Source: Minisyncoccota bacterium (GTDB taxonomy: Bacteria > Patescibacteriota > Minisyncoccia > UBA6257 > 2-01-FULL-56-20). From it: a DNA stretch of 64,000 nt. Below, piece by piece: positions 8,331-40,456 of this stretch. The stretch is from the NCBI GenBank assembly GCA_025449695.1, contig JANWIW010000036.1, forward strand, positions 320 through 64,319, read 5' to 3'. The notes beneath the pieces are model-generated. The model made no database searches. It was given only the letters and a program-made list of their open reading frames with translations, and was not told the origin of the DNA. Each line of letters opens with the position of its first letter. Position 1 is the first letter of the stretch. Both the position numbers and the translations under genes were made by a program.

Positions 8331-8368
8331 GGTACAGTGCTGTACACTGCGAAGCTTTAGCGAAGCAG

Positions 8369-8642
8369 TGCCGCGGGGGTGAATCGAACACCCGACGCCT
8401 TCCTCTTCCGAGGTTTGGACTATCTCATCTTCCCGAAGGAAGTTGGGCGCTTGTGCAGGATTATTGTTGGGACTCACCCGCTAGTCTCTACACCTTCCCC
8501 GCCACCTCTGCCCAGCGGGGCTTGGCTCGGGATTGTCCAAATATTGGAGTTTCCCCGAATTCACCCAATTATTCAATCCGCATTACTGCGGAAGGCCCCA
8601 AAGAGTACTTAGGGAAGCGCTCTGCCACTGAGCTACCGCGGC
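8369..8642 (-). tRNA. tRNA-Phe(GAA) interrupted in the anticodon loop by a group I intron (exons 8611..8642 and 8369..8408)
   Basis: 5' exon GCCGCGGTAGCTCAGTGGCAGAGCGCTTCCCT and 3' exon GAAGAGGAAGGCGTCGGGTGTTCGATTCACCCCCGCGGCA reconstitute a 72-nt cloverleaf: 7-bp acceptor stem, GTTCGATT T-arm, A73, loop CUGAAGA with anticodon GAA. The anticodon call depends on the inferred splice sites. Confidence 0.65.
8409..8610 (-). ncRNA. group I self-splicing intron (202 nt) in the tRNA anticodon loop
   Basis: Conserved group I elements read in the insert: P-like AAUUCGGGGAAAC, Q-like AAUCCCGAGCCAAGCC, R-like GUAGAGACUAGC and S-like AAGAUGAGAUAGUCC (P7 GACUA/UAGUC). The 5' exon ends in U and pairs with intron GGGG (P1 U.G). 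The intron ends in G. The 3' exon start GAAGA can pair with the P1 loop UCUUU (P10). Confidence 0.65.
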
Positions 8643-12282: not shown

Positions 12283-12545
12283 GCACTGATTGTACTAAGT
12301 ATCGCCCTCGCCGTTTGCAATTTTGAACAGATTCTCTACACTGCTACCGTTCGCGTCTTTGTCTAATTTGATCAGAGCGGCTCATTTATCCCCGGTTTGT
12401 ACGAACCTTTAACTCGTCACCAAACCGCAATCCCGCCTAAAGCGCGTCCTTAGCTCCGACGCCGCATAGCGGGTCGGAGCCCCGACCGAAGCGTCGGGGC
12501 CCAGTGCTTTAGATGAATTTGAGAACGGTAAGGCAGGCTTGGTAA

Positions 12546-12806
12546 GTGGCTTGGATATACATCTTACGGAGTGGAAATGGCAGGCTCTACTTGGGAAGTA
12601 CTTCCAACCTTCGACATAGACTACTGCACCACATGGGCGGACATACCCCCAGCACAAAGAGGCTGGGCAAGGTCGAGCTTGTATTCTCACAACAATTCTC
12701 TACACTAGCAGAAGCGAGAAAAGTCGAACGCCGCCTTAAGATGCTCAAAAGAAAAGATTACCTGGAAAAGATAATACGAGACGGAGAAGTGAAGATGCGT
12801 CCTTAG
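12546..12806 (+). CDS. GIY-YIG nuclease family protein (YhbQ/UPF0213-like)
   Basis: WIYILRS..GRLYLGSTSNLRHRLLHH matches the GIY-YIG module of small YhbQ-type proteins. The last codons overlap the 5' end of tRNA-Val. Confidence 0.7.
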   Translation: MAWIYILRSGNGRLYLGSTSNLRHRLLHHMGGHTPSTKRLGKVELVFSQQFSTLAEARKVERRLKMLKRKDYLEKIIRDGEVKMRP

Positions 12807-24788: not shown

Positions 24789-25772
24789 ATGGGAGCAAAG
24801 CACGAATCGCTCGATTATCCCGAGGGCTTGGAACCGGTCCCGCTGGACAAGAGAGAGGTTATGGGATCGACCCTCGATCGTCTTCTCACCAAGAATCAGG
24901 GCGTTATCTTCGCGGCGAGCGGGCGCACCGAGCGCATCCTCCGCAAGGAAGCCGTCGACCCGCTCGAGTTCACTGACGTTTTTCTTCCGGAAGAGATATC
25001 TGCGGACATGAGACAGACGACCCTCAAGGAGGCCGGTTTCAAGGTTGTTGCCGGTCCGCAGCTGCTCATGGAGAAATTGGCTTTCGCCGCTGAGGGCCTG
25101 CTCTATCACCAGATAGGCGTTGCGGACTGGCTTTCCAGCGAAGGCGTGCGGACCTATGTAGAAAAAGCCTCTAAGCCCGACGATATTCTGCGCGGGAACG
25201 ACCTGGTCGTGGAGTTCGACATGGGCGGAGACAAAGAGCCGCTGGCGCTGAGCGTCGACCTCGCGGTCGGCCCGGACGCTTTTCGCAAGAAGATAGGGCA
25301 CATCCGGGAGAAGATCGATGCAGGGACCCTGACCGAGGTCCGGTATCATATCGGCCCGGACGGCGCCCACAATCCCCTTTCCCGTACCCCGAAAGTGGTC
25401 GTAGGCATGTCCCCCGAGAAAGCCGTGGCCGTTTCCCGGCTATGGACCAGCGAGGACAAGAATGATACGGCCAGACTGAAGGAACATCCGATCCAAGTTG
25501 CGATCGTCAGGCAAATCGACCTGCAGCTCAAGGCGTACGAGCAGTACGCGCGCGCCAAAGGCAAGACTGAGCTTGCGGAGCGTTTCGCAAGAGCGGGCGC
25601 CGCTGTCGGGAAGATATTGAAGGAGAAGGAATCGAAGCTCAAGGACGACCCAACGGCCGCGGCCGGGGATACCGTTGCCCAGATCCGCCTGGCCCTTACA
25701 GAGCTCTCTCCGGCCAAGACCGGCGACCGGCCATACGAGACCAACGTCAGGGCGAACCGCTGGCACGTCTGA
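24789..25772 (+). CDS. hypothetical protein (327 aa)
   Basis: GC-rich ORF downstream of the TrmB paralog. No recognisable motif. Confidence 0.45.
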   Translation: MGAKHESLDYPEGLEPVPLDKREVMGSTLDRLLTKNQGVIFAASGRTERILRKEAVDPLEFTDVFLPEEISADMRQTTLKEAGFKVVAGPQLLMEKLAFAAEGLLYHQIGVADWLSSEGVRTYVEKASKPDDILRGNDLVVEFDMGGDKEPLALSVDLAVGPDAFRKKIGHIREKIDAGTLTEVRYHIGPDGAHNPLSRTPKVVVGMSPEKAVAVSRLWTSEDKNDTARLKEHPIQVAIVRQIDLQLKAYEQYARAKGKTELAERFARAGAAVGKILKEKESKLKDDPTAAAGDTVAQIRLALTELSPAKTGDRPYETNVRANRWHV

Positions 25773-25863: not shown

Positions 25864-26106
25864 CTAAATACTGTCGTAAGTTTTCTCGCTGCGGCGCTCG
25901 ATAAGCAGGATGAGAACCGCTCCCTCTTTCGCGCGGTACACGATTCGCAGATCTCCCTTTCTAACCCGGAAAATGTCGTCTCTACCTTGGAGCTTTTTGA
26001 TATCCAATCCCTGCAACTTACCCGCTGCCAGTTTAGTAAGCACGTCTTTAACGCGGCTTCTTTCCTTGGAGGTAAGCTTCTGTAAGGCTTTCTCGATTGC
26101 GTCCAT
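25864..26106 (-). CDS. type II toxin, RelE/ParE family
   Basis: 80 aa. ...IFRVRKGDLRIVYRAKEGAVLILLIERRSE... is the RelE/ParE C-terminal signature. Starts 1 nt after the upstream antitoxin ORF. Confidence 0.75.
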   Translation of the reverse strand: MDAIEKALQKLTSKERSRVKDVLTKLAAGKLQGLDIKKLQGRDDIFRVRKGDLRIVYRAKEGAVLILLIERRSEKTYDSI

Positions 26107-26328
26107 TTAAAGACGGCTGATCAGATCGGCGATTGCAGCGCCCCCCTTCTTGATCTTCGTAAAATCAATGACCGGCTGCCAGAGATCATCCTCATCTGGA
26201 GAAGAAATCTTGAATACTGGCTTGGACTTCTTCATGACAATAAAAGAGCCGCCTTCCTTGATCTTTTCAATGTAAGTCTCGATGTTTTCCCGCAACTCTT
26301 TAAGTCCGATGGTGTGGAGGTTTTTCAT
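26107..26328 (-). CDS. type II antitoxin (Phd/YefM-like)
   Basis: 73 aa. Abuts the toxin. MKNLHTIGLKELRENIETYIEKIKEGGSFIVMKKSKPVFKI resembles the YefM/Phd fold. Confidence 0.6.
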   Translation of the reverse strand: MKNLHTIGLKELRENIETYIEKIKEGGSFIVMKKSKPVFKISSPDEDDLWQPVIDFTKIKKGGAAIADLISRL

Positions 26329-26335
26329 GTCGGTA

Positions 26336-26364
26336 AGTTTAACTTAAGATAAACTTGATGTCAA
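26336..26364 (-). promoter_or_regulatory. sigma70-like promoter of the toxin-antitoxin operon (TTGACA-17-TAAACT), near-leaderless
   Basis: Minus-sense aaaaacTTGACAtcaagtttatcttaagtTAAACTtaccgacATG. Dyad symmetry around the -10 box may be the antitoxin operator. Confidence 0.4.
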
Positions 26365-26374
26365 GTTTTTATCA

Positions 26375-26397
26375 AACAAATATAGGGTCAGGAATAC
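26375..26397 (+). repeat. 23-bp direct repeat, copy 1 (GGGTCAGGAATACGCTCGTATAA)
   Basis: Perfect match to 26772..26794. The two copies bracket the GIY-YIG gene. Confidence 0.9.
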
Positions 26398-26415
26398 GCT
26401 CGTATAAGAGTGTTT

Positions 26416-26688
26416 TCAGCTGTGCTTATAACCTAATTCTTCAAAGCATTCCTCTAGCTGCACCTTCAACTCTGACTTTCCTTTGCCACCCTTCAAGAAT
26501 TTCTCCCGGCGCTTAGCGTCTATTTCGGAGAGGTATGATTCGTAATAGACTAATCTCACTGGACGCCGATTCCTAGTGGCAAGAACATAGCCATTTTTGT
26601 GTTTCTCGATACGGACCTTAAGATCCGGCGTGTAGCCGGTGTAAAGTTCGCCATCCTTCTCGCTAAATAAGATGTACACATAGTACAT
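26416..26688 (-). CDS. GIY-YIG nuclease family protein (YhbQ/UPF0213-like), second copy
   Basis: MYYVYILFSEKDGELYTGYTPDLKVRIEKHKNG is a canonical GIY-YIG N-terminus. Confidence 0.75.
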   Translation of the reverse strand: MYYVYILFSEKDGELYTGYTPDLKVRIEKHKNGYVLATRNRRPVRLVYYESYLSEIDAKRREKFLKGGKGKSELKVQLEECFEELGYKHS

Positions 26689-26771
26689 TGGCCCAGCTTA
26701 ACTGTTTTATATCAATACTATCTAAATTGCTTGGGTGGTCAGCTTAGCTGACCATAACCCACGCTAAGCGT

Positions 26772-26794
26772 GGGTCAGGAATACGCTCGTATAA
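26772..26794 (+). repeat. 23-bp direct repeat, copy 2
   Basis: Identical to 26375..26397. Preceded by two GC hairpins (GGTCAGCTTAGCTGACC and CCCACGCTAAGCGTGGG). Confidence 0.9.
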
Positions 26795-27886: not shown

Positions 27887-28038
27887 GATCTATCCTTTCC
27901 GGGTTTTCAACCCTGCTTTTCTGCACACATCTTACCCTAAAGTTTCTATGTTGTCAATAATTTGTATACAGCTTTGTAGTATTGTTTTTACTACACTATC
28001 CGTGTAAAAATGAGATTGTTGTAAGATTGTTTTTACAC

Positions 28039-28788
28039 ATGCTCAATCCCTCAAAACTTAAGGATTTTGGCCTCGGTGACAAAGAAGCCAGAGTTTATCT
28101 AGCGCTCTTGGAGGTTGGAGAGGCCAAAGCTCACGAGATAGCGAGTAAGGCCGGTGTAGCTCGACCGGCCGTCTACGATCTACTGAACCGACTTACCGAA
28201 GAAGGATTAGTGGGAACAATCCAAAAAAACAAAGTCGCTTACTTCGTCGCCAATAGCCCGGAGACCATACGGCGCGGGCTAGAGGAAAAGCAACGGGTAT
28301 TCGATCAACTACTGCCCGAGCTGCGATCGGCATTCAACACTACCAAGTCCAAGCCAAGAATTCTTTATTACGAGGGGGTGGAGGGCATCAAAACCGTATT
28401 TGAAGATACGTTGACCGCGCATAATAAAACACTCCTCGGCATTCTCTCAATGGAAGATCTATTTAAAACTCCGGGCAAAGAGTACATGGATGATTATGTG
28501 GCAAGGCGCGTTGCGGCCGGATACACGCTTCGCGTGATCCGCAGCAAGCCGAAAGAGGTCGGCCATGCATGGCAATCTGCCCCTGGCGAGAAGCGCGAGT
28601 TGCGTTACCCACCGGCAAGTATGGTGTTCGACATGACAACCTACATTTACGACGACAAGGTGGGCCTGATCTCAACGGAAAAAGAGAATTTTGGTTTAAT
28701 AATCGAGAGTGTGGAGTACAGTAATAATATGCGCCATCTTTTCGAGGCTTTGTGGCAGATCAGTACCGCAGATAGACCCCATCAATAA
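28039..28788 (+). CDS. TrmB-family transcriptional regulator (paralog 2 of 3)
   Basis: ARVYLALLEVGEAKAHEIASKAGVARPAVYDLLNRLTEEGLV wHTH. L-YYEGVEGIK C-domain motif shared with the other two paralogs. Confidence 0.7.
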   Translation: MLNPSKLKDFGLGDKEARVYLALLEVGEAKAHEIASKAGVARPAVYDLLNRLTEEGLVGTIQKNKVAYFVANSPETIRRGLEEKQRVFDQLLPELRSAFNTTKSKPRILYYEGVEGIKTVFEDTLTAHNKTLLGILSMEDLFKTPGKEYMDDYVARRVAAGYTLRVIRSKPKEVGHAWQSAPGEKRELRYPPASMVFDMTTYIYDDKVGLISTEKENFGLIIESVEYSNNMRHLFEALWQISTADRPHQ

Positions 28789-29525
28789 TCTGAAATGCCT
28801 TCAAATACTTTTACCGCCGGACCGGTCATATAGATCTTGCCGTCCTTCTGCTCGATTACGAGCGTTCCTCCGGGAGAAATCACCCTGACGACATTTGAGA
28901 CCAGCCCTTTAGAAAGGGCGGCAGTTGCAGCCGCGCACGCGCCGGTGCCACAGGCCAAGGTATGTCCCACCGACCGCTCCCACGTTCTTATCTCGAGGGC
29001 GTCCCTGCTTCGAACCCACACAAAATCTACATTGGTCTTGTTGGGGAATAGATCTGTCCGGTGTTCCAATGCGCGGCCTTCTTCCTGCCAGTCAAAATCA
29101 AAATTCTTTACGAAAACTACTGCATGAGGCGTCCCTATCTGCATGGCGAAGATGTCCTTATGTTCTGTTATTGCCGGAATCGCTCCCATTTCAACCCTTA
29201 CATCCTTATCCCCTATTAAAGTTGCCTTCGTTATACCTGCGCGCGTCTCAATGGCAATATCTTTCCCTGCTTTCTTAGCCACACAGCGCAACGCATTCCC
29301 GCAGGTTTCTGCCTCTGTACCGTCCGGATTGAATATCTCCATGCGGCAATTCACCCCTGTGCTGGGACCTACTATCACAAGGCCGTCCGCGCCAACACCA
29401 AATCGCCTGTTACATAGTTGCCTGGCAAGCTCGGAGGTTGCGGGTAAGCGCTTCTGATTCCCCTCGATAAGTACGAAGTCGTTACCTGCAGCCTGCCATT
29501 TCTCGAATCTCAGAGGCATGCTCAC
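28782..29525 (-). CDS. dapF: diaminopimelate epimerase
   Basis: FEKWQAAGNDFVLIEG at the N-terminus and the catalytic Cys in CGNALRC. 247 aa. Confidence 0.9.
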   Translation of the reverse strand: MSMPLRFEKWQAAGNDFVLIEGNQKRLPATSELARQLCNRRFGVGADGLVIVGPSTGVNCRMEIFNPDGTEAETCGNALRCVAKKAGKDIAIETRAGITKATLIGDKDVRVEMGAIPAITEHKDIFAMQIGTPHAVVFVKNFDFDWQEEGRALEHRTDLFPNKTNVDFVWVRSRDALEIRTWERSVGHTLACGTGACAAATAALSKGLVSNVVRVISPGGTLVIEQKDGKIYMTGPAVKVFEGISDY

Positions 29526-30487
29526 AAAGGCCGTGCCAGGAACGCATAAGCTAAGTGGCCAACTCTCTTATCTTCATTCACAAGGCTATAAGCTTCTTCG
29601 GCATTGATCTCGGCTGATCTGATGATTTCCCTTATCGTCGGTTCGTCATAGCCATCAACGGTACCAGGGACATCTATGCCGGTTCTCTCTTTAAGCAGCG
29701 CGGTGGCTTGCTCGTACTTGTAGAATGAGAATTCTATTCCGTTCTCTTTCTCGTAAATGGCGTACTGCTCCAGGAATTGGGCATCGCTCTGCATCATGAA
29801 CACGATATCCGTGCGTTCATAGGCAAGCCCTGCACGCCTAAAGCATTCCGCGATAGCACTGGTCGGCACTCTGCCACCGATCAACGTAACAAGGGAGCCT
29901 CCGGGAAGAAGTTTTTCTTTAGCCGATCGCAAAAAGCCGAGTTGCGATAAGAGAGAATACTTTTTGAGAACGTCCTCTTCGCTTTCTGCAAGGTAAGCAT
30001 ATGGCCTTGCGTCAGTAAGGGTAGTGGTCGCGAGATTTTTTTCGAGCTTGCTAGAGTCCACCATCACCAAGGGAAGATTGCCGTAAATGAAGTCAACCTT
30101 CTCAGACAAAGGGTCACAATCTCTGCCTGCTAAATAGGTGATCTTTTTTCTTTCCAAAACATCTGACGGGACATTTTTCTCAATGTTTTTTCTTATATCA
30201 GGCAGAATCTCCGGGATGATGTCTGTAATGTAAAGATTTTCTATTTCGGGAAATATATTCAGCGCCGCTATCGCGTCAATACCATTGCCACAGCCAATGA
30301 TCGCCATGGAGCGGATACTCTTCTTCTCTACGGCCAAGCGCTTCATTGCCCGGAGAGCAAGATAGAGCCAATCATCCTTAGGGTTCGCTTCCAGCCCGGA
30401 CATATCATCGGAAACGGTGATCTCACCCTTGGCATCGATATCCACGGCCGTCATGAGGGCAGAAAAATCTATCGTCGTCATGCGCAT
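29522..30487 (-). CDS. class I SAM-dependent methyltransferase
   Basis: Motif I AIIGCGNGIDAI followed by an acidic beta-2 end (YITDI). 4-nt overlap with dapF. Confidence 0.6.
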   Translation of the reverse strand: MRMTTIDFSALMTAVDIDAKGEITVSDDMSGLEANPKDDWLYLALRAMKRLAVEKKSIRSMAIIGCGNGIDAIAALNIFPEIENLYITDIIPEILPDIRKNIEKNVPSDVLERKKITYLAGRDCDPLSEKVDFIYGNLPLVMVDSSKLEKNLATTTLTDARPYAYLAESEEDVLKKYSLLSQLGFLRSAKEKLLPGGSLVTLIGGRVPTSAIAECFRRAGLAYERTDIVFMMQSDAQFLEQYAIYEKENGIEFSFYKYEQATALLKERTGIDVPGTVDGYDEPTIREIIRSAEINAEEAYSLVNEDKRVGHLAYAFLARPL

Positions 30488-30609
30488 AGTCTAATTTTTC
30501 ACGCAAATCTGTAAATTTTCTTATTACAGCGCGGCCACAATTTGACAATAAAACCAATAAAATCTATGTTTATTAGTATCTTCTGTGTAAGTAACTAACT
30601 TACGACTTT

Positions 30610-31389
30610 ATGAACAAGATTGAAGAAATCCTTAAAAACCTTGAGTTGAACGAGAACGAGCGAAAGATCTTCTTAGCTTCTCTGCGCATCGGCTTGGCCC
30701 CAATAAGCCAGGTGGCACGCGAGGCCGGCCTTGGCAGGACATATGCCTATGAGCTGGTGGAGCAGTTGAAAGAAAAAGGTCTGCTCGCTGAAACTGAGGA
30801 GAAGGGTGTGCGAAAAATAGAAACTCTCGACTATGAAGGGGTCTTGGCCTATATCGGCCGGAAGCAGCGGGATATGGAGATCGTGGCAAGAGCCCTGATA
30901 AGGTCGGAGAAGGATTTCAAGGCTGCCCGCGCGGGGGTTCCGAGCAAGACGAAGGTTCGCTTTTTTGAAGGAGTCGAAGGAATAAAGAGCATCAACTCAG
31001 AAATCAGGAAAGACCTTGAAAAGCTGCGCCATCCCTATAAGTTTCACGTTGTGTTTTCGGCAGATCGCATGGAATCTGTCCTGCCGGGATGGATAGAACA
31101 GAACCAGCACATTTATTATGAACCCCACATGCGGAAGTACGCGATTGTAAGCGGGACCCCCTTGCTTCAAAAATTCATGGAGCAGGTACGGAACCGCGAA
31201 CAAAGAAATTTCTTTTCTAAAATATGGCCGAGCAGTAAAACTGAGTTCCCCACCGACACCTTGTGCTGGTTAGATAAGTTGGCCTATCTTGATATGGAAG
31301 GTCATCCTTCGGGCATAATTATCCAAAACAAGGCTATCGCGGACACCTTCGTAATGTGGTTCGAGCAGATGTGGACCAGCTTACGCTAG
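30610..31389 (+). CDS. TrmB-family transcriptional regulator (paralog 3 of 3)
   Basis: ERKIFLASLRIGLAPISQVAREAGLGRTYAYELVEQLKEKGLL wHTH. RFFEGVEGIKS C-domain. Confidence 0.7.
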   Translation: MNKIEEILKNLELNENERKIFLASLRIGLAPISQVAREAGLGRTYAYELVEQLKEKGLLAETEEKGVRKIETLDYEGVLAYIGRKQRDMEIVARALIRSEKDFKAARAGVPSKTKVRFFEGVEGIKSINSEIRKDLEKLRHPYKFHVVFSADRMESVLPGWIEQNQHIYYEPHMRKYAIVSGTPLLQKFMEQVRNREQRNFFSKIWPSSKTEFPTDTLCWLDKLAYLDMEGHPSGIIIQNKAIADTFVMWFEQMWTSLR

Positions 31390-31396
31390 TGCCTAT

Positions 31397-31801
31397 CTAC
31401 GACCAAAGAGAGAACTTCTTGGTCAGTTCATCAAGCGTACTTTTCTCCCCAACAATGCAGATGCCATAATACTCTAGTTCCAGCTCAGGGGTATCCTTGG
31501 ATCGCTCAACTTGCTCTTCCCATCCTCCAACTGTCATGGCGCTAGTAAACGACGCGAAAGGAATGCCTTTCTCGACACAAACATTACGAAGCGCCCGTAT
31601 CTTGTTGGAGTTATCGGCCCGGAGAATGATGTAAGGCCACTTCGAGGCCATGTGCATGCCTCCATCCTTGTCTGCATAGCTTATGACGCCCATATCAACT
31701 TCTGGATGCGAGTTCACTAGGCCCACTGTCATGTGAGCTAAGGCGTTCATTATTTTACCTGTTTCAATCTTCTTATTTAGAACGGCGACGAATTTAGTCA
31801 T
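31397..31801 (-). CDS. DUF2000-like small protein (134 aa), last gene of the AT-rich operon
   Basis: MTKFVAVLNKKIETGKIMNALAHMTVGL resembles the start of DUF2000 family proteins. Recalled from memory, not verified. Confidence 0.4.
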   Translation of the reverse strand: MTKFVAVLNKKIETGKIMNALAHMTVGLVNSHPEVDMGVISYADKDGGMHMASKWPYIILRADNSNKIRALRNVCVEKGIPFASFTSAMTVGGWEEQVERSKDTPELELEYYGICIVGEKSTLDELTKKFSLWS

Positions 31802-31825
31802 GATGATGTAGGTTCTTTGAGAAGT

Positions 31826-32959
31826 TTAGGGCATAGTTGGTATGAAATCGGCATCATCGAATGGATAGTAGCGATTTACGTAAACATTGTTCACAACAAT
31901 TTTTCCTTCTGTCTGTATATACTGCAAAGATATCTTCAGTTTTTTTTCTTCGTCTGCTCCGCGCATGCTTCTCATAAAGCCCGATTCGTAAGCGGTAACT
32001 CTGTTATAGATCAACCCCTTTTCACGCTCTTGAGTTTTACGTTGGATTACCTTGAGGCCTACATCAACATTAAAGATTCCTGGAGAATCTTCGCGGATAT
32101 CGAGTATGTTAAGTCCTAGAAAATCATATCCTCCTTTTACTAATTGGTCATCGGCAGTCTCTCCGAAAAAACTCATTTGTGTTCTAGATGCGTGCGCCCA
32201 AAAGTTATCTCTGCCTGGGCTTGTGACCAAAAGAGTATTTACCTGTAGCATAATTTCTCCGATTTTCCTTTTTATCTCATCTTCAACTAATGAGTGCTTT
32301 CTTTTCAACTCAAGATTTAAAACCAATTCTTTATCCAGATATTCTTTTAATTCGGGCAGGGTGCTCAAGATAGTAAGGCTGTTCTTTGAAAAAACTGCGA
32401 ATTCTTGGCTCAATTCGTCTACTTTAAAATCTTCTGTGTTATTTGTACAAAAAATATAGTGGCTTTCTTTATTCTCCTTAACATCGGCAAGAATAGTGAG
32501 CCAAATAAGCGTATCTTTAAATCCTTTGTCTCCTTTGTTTGCGAATGGAGGTATGTGACGCAGAGATCTTTCGACTAAGTCCTTGGTAGGAATTGTCGGC
32601 AGAGGAAGCAATGCTATATCGTTAGCCTTCAAAAACTTTGTTCCCTCTTCGCGCAAAGCTTTTTCCACATCACGTTCTGAGAGTTCTATCTTGTCCTCTT
32701 TCGTAGTAAATGGCTTCAGCTTTTCAACAGCATCTTCATGTTTTGCAATCACTGCCTGTACAACATCAAATCTCTGGGCAACTCTCTCTTCCAGGACTAC
32801 CGTGGGAACTTTAACCTCTACATTGCTCTTAAGATCGTTCTCATCTAGAAATGATAAAAGATCTTCAAAAGATGTGTTGAATATCTGGTCTAGTTTCTCC
32901 TCTCTGTCACGCCACAAAAAATTAGTATCCAGTACGACATTGAATTTCTTTTTATTCAT
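31826..32959 (-). CDS. PIN-like nuclease-domain protein (DUF4935-like N-terminus) with unknown C-terminal domain
   Basis: N-terminal VVLDTNFL...E...D...D acidic tetrad pattern of PIN-like folds. 377 aa. About 35% GC. Confidence 0.5.
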   Translation of the reverse strand: MNKKKFNVVLDTNFLWRDREEKLDQIFNTSFEDLLSFLDENDLKSNVEVKVPTVVLEERVAQRFDVVQAVIAKHEDAVEKLKPFTTKEDKIELSERDVEKALREEGTKFLKANDIALLPLPTIPTKDLVERSLRHIPPFANKGDKGFKDTLIWLTILADVKENKESHYIFCTNNTEDFKVDELSQEFAVFSKNSLTILSTLPELKEYLDKELVLNLELKRKHSLVEDEIKRKIGEIMLQVNTLLVTSPGRDNFWAHASRTQMSFFGETADDQLVKGGYDFLGLNILDIREDSPGIFNVDVGLKVIQRKTQEREKGLIYNRVTAYESGFMRSMRGADEEKKLKISLQYIQTEGKIVVNNVYVNRYYPFDDADFIPTMP

Positions 32960-32976
32960 GGTTTATCTAAGGATTA

Positions 32977-33690
32977 CTATGGAGTTCGCATTGCCCCTCC
33001 TTGATGCAAATTGATGTGCATGAATCTTTCTTCCTCCACGGAAATTGTACGACTTCTAAAGACATCTTCGATAACAAAATTCTTTGTATTGAAATCTTCT
33101 TGAAATTTTTTGGCGTAGAAATTTCTCAAAATGAAACCTATAAACATATTGGGGGTAATTGGAGAGCATAGAGGAAGACGACAATCTGCATATTGAGAAA
33201 TATGAAGATGACTTCTGGGATGAGCCATATTAACAAAGCTGTGAGGCGCGTAATCAAATCTCAGGGGGACTGGTAGCTCTACCATTGCAAGCGCCGAGCT
33301 TTCACCGGAAATATCTTCATTATCAACATCCAATTCGGCTTTTGGAATATAGCAAAGCCGATGTCCAAGAAGATCATTTCCATTGAACTGGTACATCATT
33401 TGCACCAAGGCTCCATCAAAAAGCTCGAAGTTATAGTTCTTTACTTTTATCAAAGCCTTATAAGCCTCCGCATAAGGAATGCCGCCCAACAAAGGCCCCA
33501 AAGAGGACTGTCCTGCCCAGGTTATCTCAATTTGACGCCCGTTCTGGCGAGCACTTGGAAAGTTCTGATTTACAACCCATCCTTTACCAATCAAATCTTC
33601 TGTTATCTTCTTAATCTCCTTAATAACTGCGGTGGGGGTGCTAGATATCCTCATCACCAAGAAATATTTTTTTAAGTTGTTCGCGAACAT
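32977..33690 (-). CDS. hypothetical protein (237 aa) translationally coupled to the upstream helicase
   Basis: Overlaps the helicase 3' end by about 50 nt. No recognisable motif; a DUF2290-type partner is only a guess. Confidence 0.45.
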   Translation of the reverse strand: MFANNLKKYFLVMRISSTPTAVIKEIKKITEDLIGKGWVVNQNFPSARQNGRQIEITWAGQSSLGPLLGGIPYAEAYKALIKVKNYNFELFDGALVQMMYQFNGNDLLGHRLCYIPKAELDVDNEDISGESSALAMVELPVPLRFDYAPHSFVNMAHPRSHLHISQYADCRLPLCSPITPNMFIGFILRNFYAKKFQEDFNTKNFVIEDVFRSRTISVEEERFMHINLHQGGAMRTP

Positions 33691-35740
33691 CAGGATCTAT
33701 ATTTTCAAATCTAATTTTTTCCTCATTTAGGTCTTGAATCAACTTTATTAAGTTTTTGTTGCTTCGATCTATCTCTCTATGTTCGTCTGTTGTTTTCTCG
33801 CGATTAAGAACGTTAATCTTTTCCATTGCCTTAAGGGTTGGGTACGTAAAATCCAATGTAAAGTTATTGGTCTTAACTTGCTCAAACTCTTCTATTAACA
33901 TATCCATCTTTGGCCCTACTCCATAGACTCTAACCCAGGCCTTGCTACGCGTCATCGCTGTAAAAAGAATATTTCTTCGCTTTATTATATCGGACCCAAT
34001 ATAAACATATTCTGCGTTGAGAACGTAAACCATTGGGGCTTCGTTCCCTTTCACACGATGAATACCAGAAAGTGTTACAGAATTGTCTTGGTAAAATTCA
34101 TCGCGAGAACTTGTAACTCCTACTATATGAGAATTTATTTTTTTCTTAAAAAGAATTTCAGATAATGGACCTAAGGCTTGAGGAGTAATAAAAGGGTCTG
34201 CGTTAATTACCACGATATCTCTAGTTTGAAGCTCTTCCTTTCTTAAGTTTTTTATAATCTCTTCCGCAACTGATTGAATTTGCTCGGTGTTATTTTTAAA
34301 AGTCTTAAAGACTATAATATCCTCTGCCGGAGAATGTTCTTGAAGAAAGATTGGGCTCGTATCATTAGTACGCTTAAGCCTTACTTTCCTACCATATCCC
34401 AAATCACCACTTTCCACTTGATATCCAATATCTCGCCACAAGGATGGATCATCGAACATCTGGACGAGACCTTCTTGGCGATATATTCCGAAACCTAGAG
34501 CATGGGCAGTTACCAGTACGGGGGCAGAATTTCTATAGCACTTCTCAAGAATAATGTCTTCTTTCGGTTTGTTTGGCTCATTATGAAGCTCGCGCCCCAA
34601 AACTTCTTTCGTGCTGCGCATCGAGGCTTCGTTTAACTTCTGAAGTTCATCGTAAGCCCAAATCAACCTTTTCGGTTTTCTCAATATTGCATAGCAAAGC
34701 TTAAGAAAAGAATCTGAAAAATCTTGCGCTTCATCAATTAGAATAGCGTCATATGTCTCTCTGAACTCATTTTTTTGCTCTAGCGCTTTACTGCAAACTA
34801 AGTCAAATTTATCTCTTCCCCAAGAAGCTGACTCCTTTGAAGTTCGTACATCCATGAACGAAATCCCGTTGTTTACACATATTTCAAAATAGATTCCCGG
34901 AGAACTTGCGCTTCCCCAGGCATGAAGTATCTTCACTTTTTCCCAGTCAGGCTCTTCGTTTTTTTGTTCAATTGTGAACTTAGTTATCAGATCCTTGAAC
35001 TGTCCTTTCAAGGATCTGGAGCTAAATGTTACAGCTATATTCCAATCGGGATGGGTCGAATGCAAGTAAGCAGCTTTTAATGCCAGGATGATGGTTTTTC
35101 CAGAACCTGCTAATCCTCTAATCCTCTGGGGACCCTCTGCGCTCTCAATCACAGCCGCACTCTGATGTCTGTCTAAATTCGCAATTGAATTCTCTAGGTT
35201 TCTAACTTTTGCTCCGCGAGAGTCGCTTTTTACAGTTTCCGGACGCTTTATACCTGCTCTCAATTTCGTAACCGCCTGTACTACAGAAACAAGATGCCTA
35301 AATGTGGTTTCTGACACAGGAACAAGCGTCGAAGACAAAAGGTCGCGCAATCCATCATTGTTTAAAAGTATGTCGGGATCAAGATTGGCCTGGCGACAGC
35401 CAGGTGCATAAGTAACTACATTGACTTCAACCTTCAACTTCCTTTTATCAACTAATTCTTTGTACTGAAGAAGCTTAGCATTTAAGTTATTGTATATTTC
35501 ATCCCTTTTCTGTAGATGATCACTTTGAATGCTGTCTCCCTCTACCAAGTCGAATACTACAAGGCCGTATTGGTTCGAAACGAACATCGCATCTAAAACC
35601 AATGCCCCATTGGGGGTCCCTACGATTGGATAGCCGGTGTACAGTATGCCGCTCAAATCAGCAGACCTACTTCTGAAATAGTCCAACAGTAATCCCGTAG
35701 ATACAGGCTTGGTGTTCGACCCATTGATGACCTCAACCAT
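33641..35740 (-). CDS. superfamily-1 helicase (UvrD/Rep-like ATPase core) with NERD-like N-terminal domain
   Basis: Walker A GLAGSGKT, Walker B ILIDEAQD, motif VI MTRSKAWVRVYG. N-terminal YPIVGTPNGALVLDAMFVSNQYGLVVFDL resembles the NERD nuclease-related domain. Confidence 0.8.
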   Translation of the reverse strand: MVEVINGSNTKPVSTGLLLDYFRSRSADLSGILYTGYPIVGTPNGALVLDAMFVSNQYGLVVFDLVEGDSIQSDHLQKRDEIYNNLNAKLLQYKELVDKRKLKVEVNVVTYAPGCRQANLDPDILLNNDGLRDLLSSTLVPVSETTFRHLVSVVQAVTKLRAGIKRPETVKSDSRGAKVRNLENSIANLDRHQSAAVIESAEGPQRIRGLAGSGKTIILALKAAYLHSTHPDWNIAVTFSSRSLKGQFKDLITKFTIEQKNEEPDWEKVKILHAWGSASSPGIYFEICVNNGISFMDVRTSKESASWGRDKFDLVCSKALEQKNEFRETYDAILIDEAQDFSDSFLKLCYAILRKPKRLIWAYDELQKLNEASMRSTKEVLGRELHNEPNKPKEDIILEKCYRNSAPVLVTAHALGFGIYRQEGLVQMFDDPSLWRDIGYQVESGDLGYGRKVRLKRTNDTSPIFLQEHSPAEDIIVFKTFKNNTEQIQSVAEEIIKNLRKEELQTRDIVVINADPFITPQALGPLSEILFKKKINSHIVGVTSSRDEFYQDNSVTLSGIHRVKGNEAPMVYVLNAEYVYIGSDIIKRRNILFTAMTRSKAWVRVYGVGPKMDMLIEEFEQVKTNNFTLDFTYPTLKAMEKINVLNREKTTDEHREIDRSNKNLIKLIQDLNEEKIRFENIDPDVREQLKKIFLGDEDI

Positions 35741-36163
35741 TTGCTACAGTACACATCATTTATCCTCAACTTGCAAGAATCGCATTTACATGCACGGTAT
35801 CTTGAGGAAGCAGAATTCGTAGCTAAGGTTATGACCTCTAACGTTCTCCTCGGTATAAGCGCAAATACCGCGCAATACTCAAGGATTAGGCTCCTCGTGG
35901 CAGGCGCAACTTTGTTGCTTTGCCTTGAAGTCCTGTCCATTTCGCCTGCCCATTTAAGTGCTTACCAGCGAAAACATGGAAAGCGAAATTTCCTTGTAAA
36001 GCCTAGAAATGTGCTCCGTTTCGCTTTCCACTCTTTGGAAATGGGTAACGCCTCATCGCCCGCTTTTATTGGTCGTACAAGTAAGAGGTCTGTCCCATCC
36101 CGCTTAAAACTGTATAGCGAAAAAGATTACAAAACTTATTAGTAATTTAATTTTGCTATACCT

Positions 36164-36664
36164 TTAGTTTTCTTTCAGTTTCACAAGTGCCGCGTCTTTC
36201 ATGGTTGTGCTGTTCGTTTGTACCGATTGGAACAGTGTCCCAATAATAGACTTGGCATCCGCAGCATTTTGTACATTACTTTTCTGGAACAACTCCACAA
36301 TTACAGGAACAACCTCTCGGAAGTTCTCTCGGGTAATTTGGGTTGCCTTAGCAAGCAATTCGACCACTTCTGAGGTGCTATCTACATCTTTGCCAAGAAC
36401 AGAGTACAGTGGACCGAAACCCACAGCGACTTCCTCAAAGTTCAATCCTGTAAGATTTGATATATCATTTATTTTTGCCTCGGCTCGTTCCACTTCTTCG
36501 GCGGTCATCCCCGTTCTGCCTTGAAGCGTAGCTATGGCTTCTTGGCGCTGTGCCGCTCCGACAAATCCCCAGATCAAGAACGCCACCACCGCTAACAAGA
36601 TTATTCCAGTGATGATCCGGTGACGGCCAAACCAGTTCGTAGTTTTTGTATTTTCTTTATCCAT
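36164..36664 (-). CDS. membrane-anchored hypothetical protein
   Basis: Start at MDKENTKTT. One TM helix (IITGIILLAVVAFLIWGFVGAA), then a soluble domain. Confidence 0.4.
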   Translation of the reverse strand: MDKENTKTTNWFGRHRIITGIILLAVVAFLIWGFVGAAQRQEAIATLQGRTGMTAEEVERAEAKINDISNLTGLNFEEVAVGFGPLYSVLGKDVDSTSEVVELLAKATQITRENFREVVPVIVELFQKSNVQNAADAKSIIGTLFQSVQTNSTTMKDAALVKLKEN

Positions 36665-36765
36665 TATTTTATTTTGGCTTAATTTGAATCTACGGTAGCG
36701 GCGACCTTGTAGCAAAAAACCCGCCACCAGTTGGCCTTTCGGCCTGCAGGAGTTTCCCCCTGCAA

Positions 36766-36806
36766 CGCAAGACGCGTCCCTGATGACGGGATCTTTGCGT
36801 CTTGCG
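36766..36806. repeat. 41-bp hairpin in the divergent intergenic region (CGCAAGACGC ... GCGTCTTGCG)
   Basis: 10-bp perfect stem with a structured loop. It sits where GC content shifts. Candidate operator or recombination site. Confidence 0.5.
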
Positions 36807-36906
36807 ATTTTGAGCCATGCCGTGCAGTCTTCCGCATCGGTTTAGGCTATCCAGCCGTATGTAGTTGTATTCAAATCCTATAGTGTTCCCGCGCTATAAT
36901 CAACGC

Positions 36907-37623
36907 ATGGGAATTGCTCCAATTAAGCTGAATACCGGCCTGGAAATGGAGTTCCTGCGCTGTTGCAAAAGAGAATCGTTCCAAAAGGAGGTCATGGAGC
37001 AGCGTAAGTTGTTGAACATTCCAGGCCAAGGTTTCGAATCCGCTGAGAAGTTTCTAATCCAACAGCTCTTAACTGCGAAATTAGTTGATGTGAACCAGAA
37101 ATACAAGAACTTGAACAAAGGAGCTGCTGAGATTTGTGAAAAACTAGGGTTGCCCATGTATCTGAACAATTTAGTAGAGGCCTATATGGTGCTTGGAGAT
37201 GGATTTAGGGAGTACACATACAACTCTTTTTGGTCTACGGAGGCCGGGTGTCAAATAGACAGCTTAGGAGCGCTAAGAATTGTAAAAATTTATCCTGGAG
37301 CCTCCCGACCGCGAGTACTTAAGTTTATAAATAAAAATTGGGAGATCCTTGCAGGAGGACCTACGTTCAAACAGAGAAATCAGCCCAAGTCGAAACAGCT
37401 TCGTAAACGGCCCAGGGAGGAGAGGGATGAGAAGATATATAAATACTATAAGGCCGGGCTGGTTAGGTATGATGGAAGACCGAATATAAAGAACATCCAG
37501 GAGTTAGTTAAGAAGCCCAACGACAGATTTGTCGGGTTAAAAGATGTAGATCCATTCTTCGCAAGTATGAGAACGGATACTATCCGCAACATTATCAAGA
37601 TCCAGCGCAAGAGACAGCGTTAG
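36907..37623 (+). CDS. hypothetical protein (238 aa), Lys/Arg-rich C-terminus
   Basis: ATG directly after a TATAAT box (possibly leaderless). No recognisable motif. Confidence 0.4.
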   Translation: MGIAPIKLNTGLEMEFLRCCKRESFQKEVMEQRKLLNIPGQGFESAEKFLIQQLLTAKLVDVNQKYKNLNKGAAEICEKLGLPMYLNNLVEAYMVLGDGFREYTYNSFWSTEAGCQIDSLGALRIVKIYPGASRPRVLKFINKNWEILAGGPTFKQRNQPKSKQLRKRPREERDEKIYKYYKAGLVRYDGRPNIKNIQELVKKPNDRFVGLKDVDPFFASMRTDTIRNIIKIQRKRQR

Positions 37624-37792
37624 GAATCTGTCTGGGGGACGTTAATCAGGTTCAAATAAGCAGCCTTCACGGCTACTCTTATTACTTTAAACTCGGCCTT
37701 AAAGGTCGAGATGGAACACAACGAACAAACAATTGAAGATGTTCTCGAAGAGCTGGCTCAACAGCTCGCGGACATCTTTATCGAACAAATAG

Positions 37793-38125
37793 ATGAAAAG
37801 TGCAAAACAGAAGATGAAACGCGAGATACTCCCATCTGACGCTGGAAGGCCAATGTCCGAAGAGGAAAAGGTAGGCTATCTCCAAAACTTGAATCCAATA
37901 TTGCGCACTATCGTTGAGGTGGGAGAGGCTATTCTTTCCTACCAGCCTTTTGTGCCTGTGGCCAACGATAGAGTAATTGGCGACTTGGATGAATTCCTTT
38001 TGCGGCAAAATATCTCCGAGGGATTCGAAAGCCTGGGAGCAGCCTACCGTGAGATCTCAACCAAATGCATGCTCCTGGCGGCGGCAGTAAATCTCTACAC
38101 AGACTACATAATTGATGAAGAGTAG
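37793..38125 (+). CDS. hypothetical protein (110 aa)
   Basis: Overlaps the next ORF. No motif. Confidence 0.3.
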   Translation: MKSAKQKMKREILPSDAGRPMSEEEKVGYLQNLNPILRTIVEVGEAILSYQPFVPVANDRVIGDLDEFLLRQNISEGFESLGAAYREISTKCMLLAAAVNLYTDYIIDEE

Positions 38126-38483
38126 CGCCGGAAGGTTCGTAATCCTTTACTGGTCAGCTCTGACAGATTTCGGACTTTCCATCCATGAAGCCGCGCTGCT
38201 CCAACTATACTGCAGCTTATCGAACAATAGGGGGTATTCCTACGCGAGCATAGTCACTTTGGCGCGGATCATGGGCCTGTCAAAGCAAACCATCCGCAAC
38301 CTCAACTGGTCGCTAAGCGAGGCAGAGCTGATAACTATCGCCTATCGGCAAGGGCAAAAGTTCAACCGCGTGGTGGTATCCTCCAAATGGAAATCTTACA
38401 TAGGCCTGGAGGGACATGGCGACGGTTCTTCCGTGCTTAACGAGGACCTTTGGGGAACGGACGAGGATGATAAAAAATCTTGA
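38112..38483 (+). CDS. winged-helix/HTH DNA-binding protein, replication-initiator or regulator-like
   Basis: YSYASIVTLARIMGLSKQTIRNLNWSLSEAELI is an HTH of the kind found in phage/plasmid replication-organiser proteins. Confidence 0.4.
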   Translation: MMKSSAGRFVILYWSALTDFGLSIHEAALLQLYCSLSNNRGYSYASIVTLARIMGLSKQTIRNLNWSLSEAELITIAYRQGQKFNRVVVSSKWKSYIGLEGHGDGSSVLNEDLWGTDEDDKKS

Positions 38484-38659
38484 GGGGTGTCGGAGAGAGT
38501 CAAAAAATTGGGGCTGGGGAGCTCAAAATAGTTTATGCGCCGGGCTCCAATTTCTTGAGCCAATATATATAAATGATAAGAATAAAAATAACTTGTAATT
38601 GCATCCTTCGGATCAATTACACTCTCTCTAATTTAAATTAGGGTGCCATCCCTTAAAAA

Positions 38660-40456
38660 GTGTTGGAAAATAAAAAGATGGAAAACAACAAAGTTGCGGC
38701 GATCTACTGCCGCGTCAGCACGGAGGACCAGGCCACCCATGGGATCTCCATAGAAGCGCAGGAGAGGGTGTGCGGCGAGGTCATCGAAAAAGAAGGGTAC
38801 GCCCTGCTTGAGGTCATCAAAGACGAGGGCAAGAGCGGCGGGAACCTGAACCGAGCAGGCATTAAGAGGCTAAAAGAACTCTGCGAGAAGAAGCTCATTA
38901 CCGCCGTTTTCATGGTCCATGCGGACCGCCTCTCCCGCAACACGGCCGACTACATCGGCATGATGGACTTCTTCAAAGAGAAAGGCGTCATGGTCCGCTT
39001 CGTATATCAGCCAACGATGGACCGCAGCACCGCCACCGGACAAACCATGGACACCGTGATGGCGGTGTTCAACGAACACTTCCGCCTGACCATCAAAGAG
39101 AAGACGAAGGCCACGCTCGACCAAAAGGCAAAGGCTGGGCTCTTCCCCGGCACCGCACCGTTAGGCTACATGAACGTGGACAATCCCTCGCCAACAAAGA
39201 TAGGCAAGCGCATCATCGCGCCTGACCCCGTAGGCGCTCCGTTCGTCCAGGAAGCCTTTAAGCTTTATGCCACAGGCAACTATAACGGCTTCGAGCTGAA
39301 CGAAATGATGTACCGGAAGGGTTTCCGCACCAAACGGGGCCTGAAGGTCCACCTAAGCCGCTTCTACGGCATGCTGGTGAACCCCATCTACGTCGGCGAA
39401 CTGCATTGGGGTGACATCCATCTCTCCAGGGCGCAGCACGAACCGCTTATAGACCGTGACCTGTTTGATAAAGTGCAGCGGGTCATGGCGGCGCATAACA
39501 AGCATGCCACTCGGAAGAGGAAATACACATTCCTCCTGCGAGGGTTCCTGAGGTGTCAGGAGCACCGGGACCGCAAGTACACGGCAGGACACACGGCCAA
39601 GCCCAGCGGCCTCATCTTTTCCTACTACCACTGTACGAACCGCTTCGGTTGTGCAGGCGGCTATGTGGACACGGATACACTGGAAGGTGAGGTGGCCTTG
39701 GAGTTTAAAAGACTGAAGTTTTCGGAAAGCTTCACAAACCGGGTCATCGGGAAAGCGAAGGCCGAGTTCGATGCCCGGCGCAAATCTTATGAACAGAAGA
39801 TAGCTCGCTTGGATGGCCAAAGGAATAAGCTATTTGCCCGCCGAAAGATCGCGGAGACCAAGATGTTCTCCGGCGTGCTTTCGGACGATGACTTTACCCG
39901 GATCAGGCAGGAGATAGCCGATGAGGTGAAGGTTATAGACGGCGAAAAGGCGAAGCTCGAGCAGCAGGACCACATACGGGTGGATATCGCTCAGGAGATA
40001 ACGGCTTTTATGCGAGATATGTACGCCACGTACAAAAAGGCTCATCCCATCCAGCAACGCCATTACCTAAACCTGTTCTTTGAACATCTGTTTGTCTATA
40101 AGGGCAAGGTCCAAGAGGTCGCGTGGAGCGGCCTCTTTGCTTCTTTGCTCAATTTGCAACATATAGAACAACAGAAAACCACAGGGAATATGGACCCAGT
40201 TAAAATAAGCTATGCCTGGGGTGCCCGACGGGATTTGAACCCGCAACCACTTCTGCCACAGAGAAGTGCTCTACCGTTGAGCTACGGGCACCATAGGTAC
40301 GGCGCAATTCTACCGCACCGCAGCCGATCCTTCAATCTTCATTCTGTATTAGGCCGTCTGCACTACGCTGGGGAATACGCGGAGGCCATCTGGACACCGC
40401 CTCGTGAAAAGTCCTACAATAGGAGGACTTCGCCGGACCGCACATCCCAAACATGA
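38660..40456 (+). CDS. large serine recombinase (resolvase/invertase N-domain, recombinase domain, zinc-ribbon); 3' tail reads antisense through tRNA-His
   Basis: AAIYCRVSTEDQ...S catalytic Ser region, YVGELHWGDIHLSRAQHEPLIDRDLFDKVQ recombinase domain, Cys cluster CQEHRDRKY...YYHCTNRFGC. No in-frame stop until the ATGA overlap with ftsH. The last ~80 codons lie antisense to tRNA-His and are low complexity. Confidence 0.75.
   Translation: MLENKKMENNKVAAIYCRVSTEDQATHGISIEAQERVCGEVIEKEGYALLEVIKDEGKSGGNLNRAGIKRLKELCEKKLITAVFMVHADRLSRNTADYIGMMDFFKEKGVMVRFVYQPTMDRSTATGQTMDTVMAVFNEHFRLTIKEKTKATLDQKAKAGLFPGTAPLGYMNVDNPSPTKIGKRIIAPDPVGAPFVQEAFKLYATGNYNGFELNEMMYRKGFRTKRGLKVHLSRFYGMLVNPIYVGELHWGDIHLSRAQHEPLIDRDLFDKVQRVMAAHNKHATRKRKYTFLLRGFLRCQEHRDRKYTAGHTAKPSGLIFSYYHCTNRFGCAGGYVDTDTLEGEVALEFKRLKFSESFTNRVIGKAKAEFDARRKSYEQKIARLDGQRNKLFARRKIAETKMFSGVLSDDDFTRIRQEIADEVKVIDGEKAKLEQQDHIRVDIAQEITAFMRDMYATYKKAHPIQQRHYLNLFFEHLFVYKGKVQEVAWSGLFASLLNLQHIEQQKTTGNMDPVKISYAWGARRDLNPQPLLPQRSALPLSYGHHRYGAILPHRSRSFNLHSVLGRLHYAGEYAEAIWTPPREKSYNRRTSPDRTSQT
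40217..40292 (-). tRNA. tRNA-His(GTG) with encoded G-1 and CCA
   Basis: G-1 + GTGCCCG acceptor pairing with C73, anticodon loop CTGTGGC, T-arm GCGGG-TTCAAAT-CCCGT, 3' CCA encoded. Confidence 0.9.

Follow-up and report, generated by a model that had tools for sequence, protein, structure and literature searches.

A GIY-YIG nuclease gene with paired hairpins, bracketed by 23-bp direct repeats, in a Patescibacteria contig

The nuclease gene, its hairpins and the bracketing repeat

The 64,000-nucleotide (nt; 64-kb) stretch analysed here, called the window throughout, comes from contig JANWIW010000036.1 of a Minisyncoccota metagenome-assembled genome and carries a small GIY-YIG nuclease gene that is preceded by two hairpins and bracketed by two exact copies of a 23-bp sequence, GGGTCAGGAATACGCTCGTATAA. 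The copies, hereafter the 23-mer, are both on the plus strand, at 26385-26407 and 26772-26794, with a spacing of 387 bp. An initial annotation, made from the letters alone, had pointed to this pair of perfect repeats; the pair is real, but its first copy had been placed 10 bp off, at 26375-26397, and the unit measures 387 bp rather than 397 bp. The contents ascribed to the unit are borne out, namely, a 90-amino-acid (aa) GIY-YIG gene, recognised by Pfam, and two perfect hairpins upstream of it. In the direction of transcription, the features of the unit are:

26772-26794, minus strand: upstream copy of the 23-bp repeat, an exact match, reading TTATACGAGCGTATTCCTGACCC on the gene strand
26757-26775, minus strand: hairpin 1, ACCCACGC-TTA-GCGTGGGT, a perfect 8-bp stem with covariation in nine loci
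26737-26753, minus strand: hairpin 2, GGTCAGC-TAA-GCTGACC, a perfect 7-bp stem with covariation in nine loci, followed by ACCCAA
26416-26688, minus strand: gene for a 90-aa single-domain GIY-YIG nuclease of the Ssn/UPF0213 type (Pfam PF01541)
26385-26407, minus strand: downstream copy of the 23-bp repeat, an exact match, beginning 8 nt past the GIY-YIG stop codon

By chance, no repeat of this kind would be expected in 64 kb, even with up to 3 mismatches, and no further copy exists in the window when up to 4 edits are allowed. The identity ends sharply at 23 bp, without extension on either side, and the pair is the sole long perfect direct repeat within the surrounding 20 kb. The last 4 nt of the upstream copy (ACCC) are at the same time the first 4 nt of hairpin 1, so that the junction reads ...GACCC|ACGCTTAGCGTGGG. 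A search with the 20-mer core of the repeat across 185,579 species genomes and the JGI metagenomes yielded only two chance matches, one per collection, in Pantoea and inside a phage amidase open reading frame (ORF). Neither terminal inverted repeats nor a transposase were found in the 387-bp unit.

The nuclease domain spans residues 1-71 of the predicted protein (PF01541, E 1.2e-14, 54.8 bits against a cut-off of 22.6), and no second domain is present in its 90 aa. Residues Y5, Y16, G18, R26, H30, E50 and E62 do not vary among 27 family members, the window protein being one of them; the invariant Tyr, Arg, His and Glu presumably have the catalytic roles of their counterparts in I-TevI. Homologues form 553 clusters at E <= 0.001, many of them from named Patescibacteria, and their names assign the source organism to this group (the candidate phyla radiation); the best 120 of the 553 clusters are 64-80% identical to the window protein and nearly all 90 aa long. 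A phage origin was rejected, there being no relatives of the protein in 2.9 million viral contigs.

Both hairpins are centred on GCTNAGC. Their pairing was assessed across nine loci, that is, the window and the eight homologous loci described below. Among 127 cells, 98.4% are paired, compensatory changes on both sides affect 7 of the 15 base pairs, and G-U pairs are entirely lacking. The observed covariation score was reached by none of 500 shuffles, and sliding the hairpin partners, as a control, brought pairing down to 26-44%. Nothing is fixed across the loci except the centre GC-TNA-GC and the flanking CCC/GGG. A covariance model of the nine sequences matches the window hairpins at 26730-26776 (65.5 bits) and detects no other copy of the hairpin pair in the window; a direct scan of the 64 kb likewise found no GCTNAGC hairpin besides these two, and Rfam holds no family for the double-hairpin motif. 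The lack of G-U pairs is compatible with a hairpin that may act at the level of DNA. The possibility that the double hairpin is a general tRNA trailer was rejected, given that the other six tRNA genes of the window have none.

A third GCTAAGC core lies within the nuclease gene itself (26511-26517), in the codons GAC GCT AAG CGN CGG, which encode a D-A-K-R-R motif conserved in the window protein and its homologues; in two of the homologous loci (L001 and L007), it widens to a 13-15-nt palindrome, with 3-4 pairs beyond GC..GC. Three of the 15 GCTNAGC sites of the window thus fall within 260 bp, inside the unit. A restriction site was considered and rejected: the overall count is at chance level (15 observed against 20.6 expected), no methylase neighbours the gene, and the sites are enriched rather than avoided in the unit.

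The module and its address in Patescibacteria

DNA was fetched for eight distinct homologous loci (L001, L007, L008, L011, L014, L024, L026 and L027). In all eight, which belong to Patescibacteria, the order is the same, hairpin 1, hairpin 2, gene. The gene lies directly downstream of tRNA-His(GTG) in five of them (L001, L007, L008, L011 and L014), downstream of tRNA-Lys(CTT) in L027 and downstream of the transfer-messenger RNA (tmRNA) in L026; only in L024 does no RNA gene adjoin. In the six loci that have the module immediately against a tRNA or tmRNA gene, the ACCC of hairpin 1 ends no more than 2 nt from the annotated 3' end of the RNA; hairpin 1 therefore consists of the final bases of this RNA gene and their complement. 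In all nine loci, the hairpins are placed 3' of the word (C/G)ACCC, which pairs with the hairpin foot. The usual place of the module is the 3' end of a tRNA gene, mostly tRNA-His, or of the tmRNA gene.

The extent of the module follows from two near-identical copies at different sites. The modules of L014 and L024 share ~88% nucleotide identity in the coding sequence, yet the former sits on tRNA-His and the latter adjoins an intergenic element of 37 nt. The two are homologous as far as the stop codon and, on the upstream side, over the hairpins alone, which defines the unit as hairpin 1 through stop codon. The window repeat brackets the module at precisely these edges, which were set by the comparison of loci independently of the repeat. 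The module is a compact unit conserved in Patescibacteria and, in the window, it is complete and intact. The proposal that the small nuclease genes are mobile cassettes is partly supported: the module is a discrete unit that changes its address, at differing sites across genomes, and the repeat marks its edges here, but the repeat is no feature of the element and a mechanism can only be inferred. Since none of the eight relatives has the 23-mer (0/8), the 23-mer is not part of the module.

Boundary repeats of other kinds occur at two of these loci, L007 and L024, which depart from the canonical arrangement. In L007, an 86-nt repeat (97% identical between copies) brackets the module in the same register as in the window (...CACCC|ACGCTAAGCGTGGG) and ends in a tRNA-His 3' end. 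Three copies of this tRNA-His end are found at 1767-2445 of that locus, one of them in the real tRNA gene 195 bp upstream. The stretch that follows the real tRNA starts like hairpin 1 and finishes like the nuclease-gene unit, and after the third copy come a hairpin of another kind (CCCCGTCAAACGGGG) and a gene for 185 aa.

The intergenic element of L024, AAACAGGTTCTAATAGCGTCCAYTCTCCGACCC, is present in five copies within 3.5 kb, all on one strand:

L024 43-79, 673-709, 1650-1686, 2309-2345 and 3118-3154: copies of the 37-nt element

Each gene or gene pair, a HicA toxin pair among them, has one copy in front of it, a layout that looks like a cassette array. Up to 30 nt are identical between copies (26 nt within the element consensus), and one copy holds a 20-nt insertion in its middle. 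The module abuts one of the copies through the junction GACCC|ACGC, the same as in the window. A TTGACA box comes after two of the copies, in one case (3118-3154) without a gap; because this copy runs straight into TTGACA, it is an empty site. L014 contains, in addition to its module, a double GCTNAGC hairpin without a nuclease gene (2847-2892, 45.8 bits with the covariance model), which interrupts a copy of the L024-type element in its middle, with CCAT on both sides, and lies downstream of a NUDIX gene. The 23-mer itself aligns with the L024 element no better than random places of the window do, and homology between the two was rejected. Short target duplications at the remaining loci were rejected as well: the only candidate, an 8-mer (TCGCTCAC) 8 nt past the stop codon in L027, was not significant in a broad test.

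Kinship with Ssn nucleases and other known systems

The closest characterised relatives of the window protein appear, from sequence comparison, to be the Ssn nucleases, a family that includes SsnA of Neisseria meningitidis with its NTS/SRM hairpin repeats (Chenal et al. 2025, PMC11893778). These single-domain GIY-YIG proteins of ~94 aa bind a hairpin repeat in single-stranded DNA and cut this DNA, as opposed to double-stranded DNA or RNA, just upstream of it, their genes are usually flanked by NTS/SRM repeats, and the authors note a layout resembling that of an insertion sequence (IS) (PMC11893778). Members of the family (CDD cd10448) are single-domain proteins of <=150 aa, recognised by a blastp match to SsnA (CAX49033.1) at E below 1e-10 with 75% coverage or by cd10448 as the top CDD match; the window protein has a single domain and 90 aa, and an SRM-flanked Azospirillum protein served as a stand-in for SsnA in the comparisons. 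A plasmid search with this protein retrieved GIY-YIG genes of Shinella and Azospirillum that have NTS-like repeats on both sides. The window family profile aligns with the SRM-flanked Azospirillum protein at an hhalign probability of 97.4% (E 1.5e-11, 38% identity over 77 columns), and the pairwise comparison of the two proteins gives 39% identity over 80 aa (E 6e-14). The match to Escherichia coli YhbQ is weaker (hhalign E 3.7e-7, 24% identity) and requires a 12-aa gap. The original label of the gene, YhbQ-like, was only roughly right: by the hhalign E-values, E. coli YhbQ is more distant from the family than the Ssn-type nucleases are. Among solved structures, the nearest are BH0048 (PDB 1zg2, E 1.7e-8 over 66 residues) and EF2693 (PDB 1ywl, E 1.6e-4); these do not separate the families, because the Ssn-type protein matches the same two PDB entries.

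The likeness to Ssn consists of a ~90-aa single-domain GIY-YIG nuclease without a DNA-binding domain, a gene tied to short hairpin repeats, and hairpin-only copies away from the gene, as at L014 2847-2892. There are differences as well. The module hairpin is GCTNAGC-centred, with 7-8-bp stems, and never matches the SRM pattern: the published search pattern gave 0 matches near the gene in the window and in the eight homologous loci, and it does match around the Shinella and Azospirillum genes. The module hairpins stand in tandem and exclusively 5' of the gene, whereas for Ssn genes SRMs are expected within 500 bp on both sides, and hairpin 1 is joined to a tRNA or tmRNA gene at the 3' end of the latter. 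Near the C terminus, the window family has the motif KGGKGxxELK, and Ssn has KKWxRxWK. Finally, no genome-wide expansion of the hairpin is seen, only the module's own two in the 64 kb. Because the published SRM pattern does not match the module hairpins, the window family would at best be a distinct branch with a hairpin of its own.

One match to the SRM pattern, the only one in the window, lies at 2308-2335 on the plus strand, between a laccase-like gene and a long ORF (2399-4864). This sequence, TGTCATTCCCGCGCAGGCGGGAATCCAC, agrees at 26 of 28 positions with the Neisseria NTS/dRS3 consensus CGTCATTCCCGCGMAVGCGGGAATCYRG, NTS being the cognate site of Ssn nucleases; no Ssn-type gene adjoins it.

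Other systems share some features with the module. The UPF0213/YhbQ proteins (E. coli YhbQ, Bacillus halodurans BH0048, Enterococcus faecalis EF2693) have the same size and a single GIY-YIG domain, but the window protein matches them more weakly than it does Ssn-type proteins, and yhbQ of E. coli K-12 is surrounded by ordinary protein genes and has no tRNA gene as a neighbour. Homing endonucleases such as I-TevI and Seg carry a C-terminal DNA-binding domain and exceed 200 aa, whereas the window protein has 90 aa and a nuclease domain only; moreover, homing is not known to leave flanking repeats. What SegB of phage T4 has in common with the module is a GIY-YIG gene beside tRNA genes, with signs of spread between genomes (PMC2330249). 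As a working analogy, elements of the IS200/IS605 and REP/RAYT types resemble the module in their subterminal hairpins, placement 3' of a short word and gene-less hairpin copies. However, these depend on an HUH transposase that is able to rejoin DNA, unlike the hydrolytic GIY-YIG nuclease of the module; the module also lacks a right-end hairpin, and neither type of element is known to make a target duplication. Islands at tRNA ends and their deletion remnants are similar in the location downstream of tRNA-His and in the direct repeats around a short unit. True tRNA-end repeats are found in L007, but the 23-mer of the window is not a tRNA end, and the unit here has only 387 bp and no integrase.

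The pair described here combines an Ssn-like nuclease with a hairpin that is new and an address at tRNA ends. Ssn nucleases were first described in 2025; the module would represent a large branch in Patescibacteria, with a hairpin code of its own and a fixed address at tRNA ends. It bears on the mobility of nuclease-hairpin pairs, which the authors of the Ssn study only suggested, and hints at a link between Ssn-like nucleases and tRNA 3' ends. Hundreds of genes annotated as 'GIY-YIG nuclease family protein' beside tRNAs in candidate-phyla genomes would then be one module, and a new sequence specificity for single-stranded-DNA tools may be at hand.

Surroundings of the module and origin of the repeat

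Downstream of the module lies a toxin-antitoxin (TA) operon, followed in the list below by the tRNA gene that is the canonical partner of the module in relatives:

26336-26364, minus strand: promoter-like site of the Phd/ParE operon, TTGACA-17-TAAACT, with overlapping palindromes, kept in the nearest TA relative
26107-26328, minus strand: Phd-like antitoxin gene (PhdYeFM, 27.8 bits against a cut-off of 29.8, E 2.2e-6)
25864-26106, minus strand: ParE/RelE-like toxin gene (ParE, 21.7 bits against a cut-off of 23, E 3.2e-4)
40217-40291, minus strand: tRNA-His(GTG) gene, beside a divergent FtsH gene, without a module

Both Pfam scores of the TA genes are just below the curated cut-offs; the two genes abut, and 232 homologues carry the Phd domain. 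The operon was at first taken to be divergent from the nuclease gene, but both of its genes are on the minus strand, co-directional with and downstream of it. The downstream 23-mer ends 20 nt upstream of the -35 box of the operon. The nearest TA relative (84% protein identity) is alignable from this -35 box on and is unrelated upstream. The nuclease, Phd and ParE genes make up a low-GC islet of ~1 kb, with a GC content of 0.45-0.49 and a GC content at third codon positions (GC3) of 0.55-0.59 (0.45 and 0.55, respectively, for the module), compared to 0.58-0.65 (about 0.60) and 0.70-0.88 for the host-like genes of the window. The low-GC stretch runs on through the TA operon, and there is no second repeat at its outer end.

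The FtsH/tRNA-His arrangement of the window matches that of L001 and L008. This tRNA-His adjoins an island with a large serine recombinase, and the module is found 13.4 kb further downstream, on the same strand. The module thus stands here without a tRNA, and its islet belongs to the variable region that follows tRNA-His. Hairpin 1 of the window (ACCCA...) fits a tRNA-His ending in CACCCA, as in L007 and L008, but does not match the window's own tRNA-His, which ends in CACCCCA. This mismatch, together with the low GC content, suggests a foreign origin of the module. No split hairpin or GIY-YIG fragment was detected elsewhere in the window.

The explanation that we tentatively favour, with a probability of roughly 0.4, is that the module was relocated into the low-GC islet and that the 23-mer marks the insertion or boundary junction of the event that placed it there. 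By analogy with Ssn, the nuclease would recognise its own hairpins 1 and 2 in single-stranded DNA and, as SsnA cuts just upstream of its hairpin, would nick the DNA at the foot of hairpin 1. A recurrent nick would render this foot recombinogenic, and insertion or repair, or Campbell-type recombination of an excised circle, would leave the target sequence duplicated. The target would have been a site ending in ...GACCC, mimicking the tRNA end ...CACCC, and would now be present on both sides of the insert. All rearrangement junctions seen, of the repeat in the window, of both repeats in L007 and of the element in L024, lie at the hairpin-1 foot; repeated nicking there would account both for the attachment to ...ACCC ends and for occasional duplications of variable length.

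Several observations weigh against this scenario. GIY-YIG enzymes hydrolyse DNA and cannot join it, so that host functions or an unknown recombinase would be needed. The only recombinase among the Pfam-scanned ORFs of the window is the large serine recombinase, 12 kb from the module; its attachment (att) sites were rejected as the source of the repeat, the island flanks showing no dyad relation to the 23-mer. Lengths of 23 and 86 nt match no known fixed target-site duplication, and a fixed-length duplication was rejected, the repeats being 23 nt in the window, 86 nt in L007 and absent from most other loci. Relatives that carry the gene without the repeats, which the initial annotation had regarded as contrary evidence, are indeed common: five or six of the eight loci have no significant flanking repeat. 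Duplication is therefore not a regular outcome and the repeat is no feature of the element, yet L007 has its analogous 86-nt bracket. Neither an empty site nor a sister strain was found; the neighbouring haem-oxygenase-like gene, used in the search for an empty site, has a best relative that is 49% identical, without conserved synteny. The five-copy pattern of L024 suits a generic repeat better than a duplication. Finally, because the module is only 13.4 kb from tRNA-His and on the same strand, it may have separated from that gene rather than been newly inserted.

A serious alternative, in our judgement somewhat less probable, is that the donor genome used the 23-mer as a generic intergenic element, at boundaries or upstream of promoters, with one copy per transcription unit; the two copies would then be neighbours in a small cassette-like array and not the footprint of an insertion. 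The five-copy element of L024, which stands before each gene or gene pair and in two copies precedes TTGACA, fits this well, the second 86-mer of L007 likewise precedes a new, hairpin-led gene, and each 23-mer of the window is followed, 56-83 nt downstream, by a start codon on the same strand. However, only two copies exist in the 64 kb, even with 4 edits allowed, the 20-mer core is absent from both sequence collections save for the two chance matches, the similarity to the L024 element is at the random level, the nearest TA relative is without the 23-mer, and no sigma-70-like promoter lies inside it.

Improbable in our view is a further reading, in which the hairpin pair and the gene form an autonomous, IS-like mobile element of a new kind. 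The hydrolytic, Ssn-like single-strand nuclease would then recognise its own hairpins and target the ...ACC(C) ends of tRNA and tmRNA genes, or sequences that look alike, through pairing with the hairpin-1 foot, and variable-length duplications would arise through host repair.

Likewise improbable is a miniature integrative cassette: a site-specific recombinase supplied in trans would have used an att-like core of 23 bp to insert the 387-bp unit, in the manner of tandem accretion at a tRNA gene or of an integron. Direct repeats around exactly one unit are the classical signature of integration, and the region lies downstream of tRNA-His, which already has a serine-recombinase island. In L007, the three tRNA-His 3' ends separate short units, the first of which starts like hairpin 1 and ends like the second. 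Yet the Pfam-scanned ORFs of the 64 kb include no tyrosine recombinase or integron integrase, no symmetry relates the flanks of the island to the 23-mer, and the search of both collections with the 20-mer core revealed no further copy of the site; large serine recombinases are not known to leave 23-bp repeats. Nor is the 23-mer a tRNA end: ARAGORN and Rfam found no tRNA or tRNA fragment at either copy, and a tRNA remnant was rejected on these grounds and because the sequence after ATTCC is too short for a T-arm and acceptor. An integron attC site was rejected on inspection by eye, which revealed neither R''/R' cores nor a GTTRRRY core nor an imperfect long palindrome, no dedicated attC search having been run; a dif/Xer-like site was rejected as well, with no XerD-like arm seen by eye.

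Very improbable is a shared operator, a regulator that would bind the 12-bp near-palindrome ATACGAGCGTAT, read from the sequence as 5+5 paired positions within the 23-mer, and would jointly control the nuclease gene and the TA operon. Both copies do stand upstream of same-strand genes, but a 5+5 palindrome in 23 nt is not unusual, none of the eight homologous modules has the 23-mer, and an identity of 23/23 speaks for recent copying rather than for binding sites that have converged. That the 23-mer regulates the TA operon, in whose promoter region the initial annotation had placed its first copy, is not upheld: the closest TA relative retains the promoter palindromes and not the 23-mer, with homology starting only at the -35 box, and because of this absence the 23-mer is neither part of the TA unit nor its operator.

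An assembly artefact, in which a foreign low-GC fragment was looped into the metagenome-assembled genome at a shared k-mer, deserves hardly any weight: the composition of the unit does differ from that of the contig, the protein is recorded from a single NCBI contig (85,871 bp) and the repeat length is near common k-mer sizes, but low GC also prevails across the TA operon, where no second repeat closes the stretch on its far side, a loop in the assembly graph could form only if the reads themselves had the repeat at either side of the fragment, and analogous brackets occur in the independent assemblies of L007 and L024.

The window contains a second GIY-YIG gene (12546-12806, plus strand), 33% identical to the first, which overlaps tRNA-Val by 10 nt. 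It had been put forward as a parallel case; the gene and the overlap are there, but it belongs to a different subfamily and the arrangement differs, the gene lying upstream of its tRNA. It has its own, differing pair of upstream GC hairpins at about 12445-12525 (region 12409-12806). The endonuclease/tRNA-Phe arrangement to which it had been likened stands in part: tRNA-Phe(GAA) is present at about 8368-8642 on the minus strand, its anticodon loop split by a group I intron (Rfam, 8399-8620, 68.6 bits), and is missed by ARAGORN without intron mode, but the 236-aa ORF that ends just upstream of it (8633-9343) has no Pfam match to a nuclease or any other family.

The low-GC island beside tRNA-His extends over 27982-40456, and its large serine recombinase ORF (38660-40456) reads through the tRNA in antisense. 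The island further encodes an HTH_36 protein, two TrmB-like regulators, DapF and DUF2000, and a trio of PIN_12, DUF2290 and a UvrD-like helicase that has the look of a defence system; a LOOT RNA (Rfam RF03000, 72.7 bits) is found within it at 36733-36848 on the minus strand. A perfect 17-nt inverted repeat, with one arm at 24903-24919 in a 327-aa ORF and the other 15.6 kb away at 40570-40586 in FtsH, encloses the TA operon, the module, the island and tRNA-His; by chance, 20 kb would contain ~0.01 pairs of this kind.

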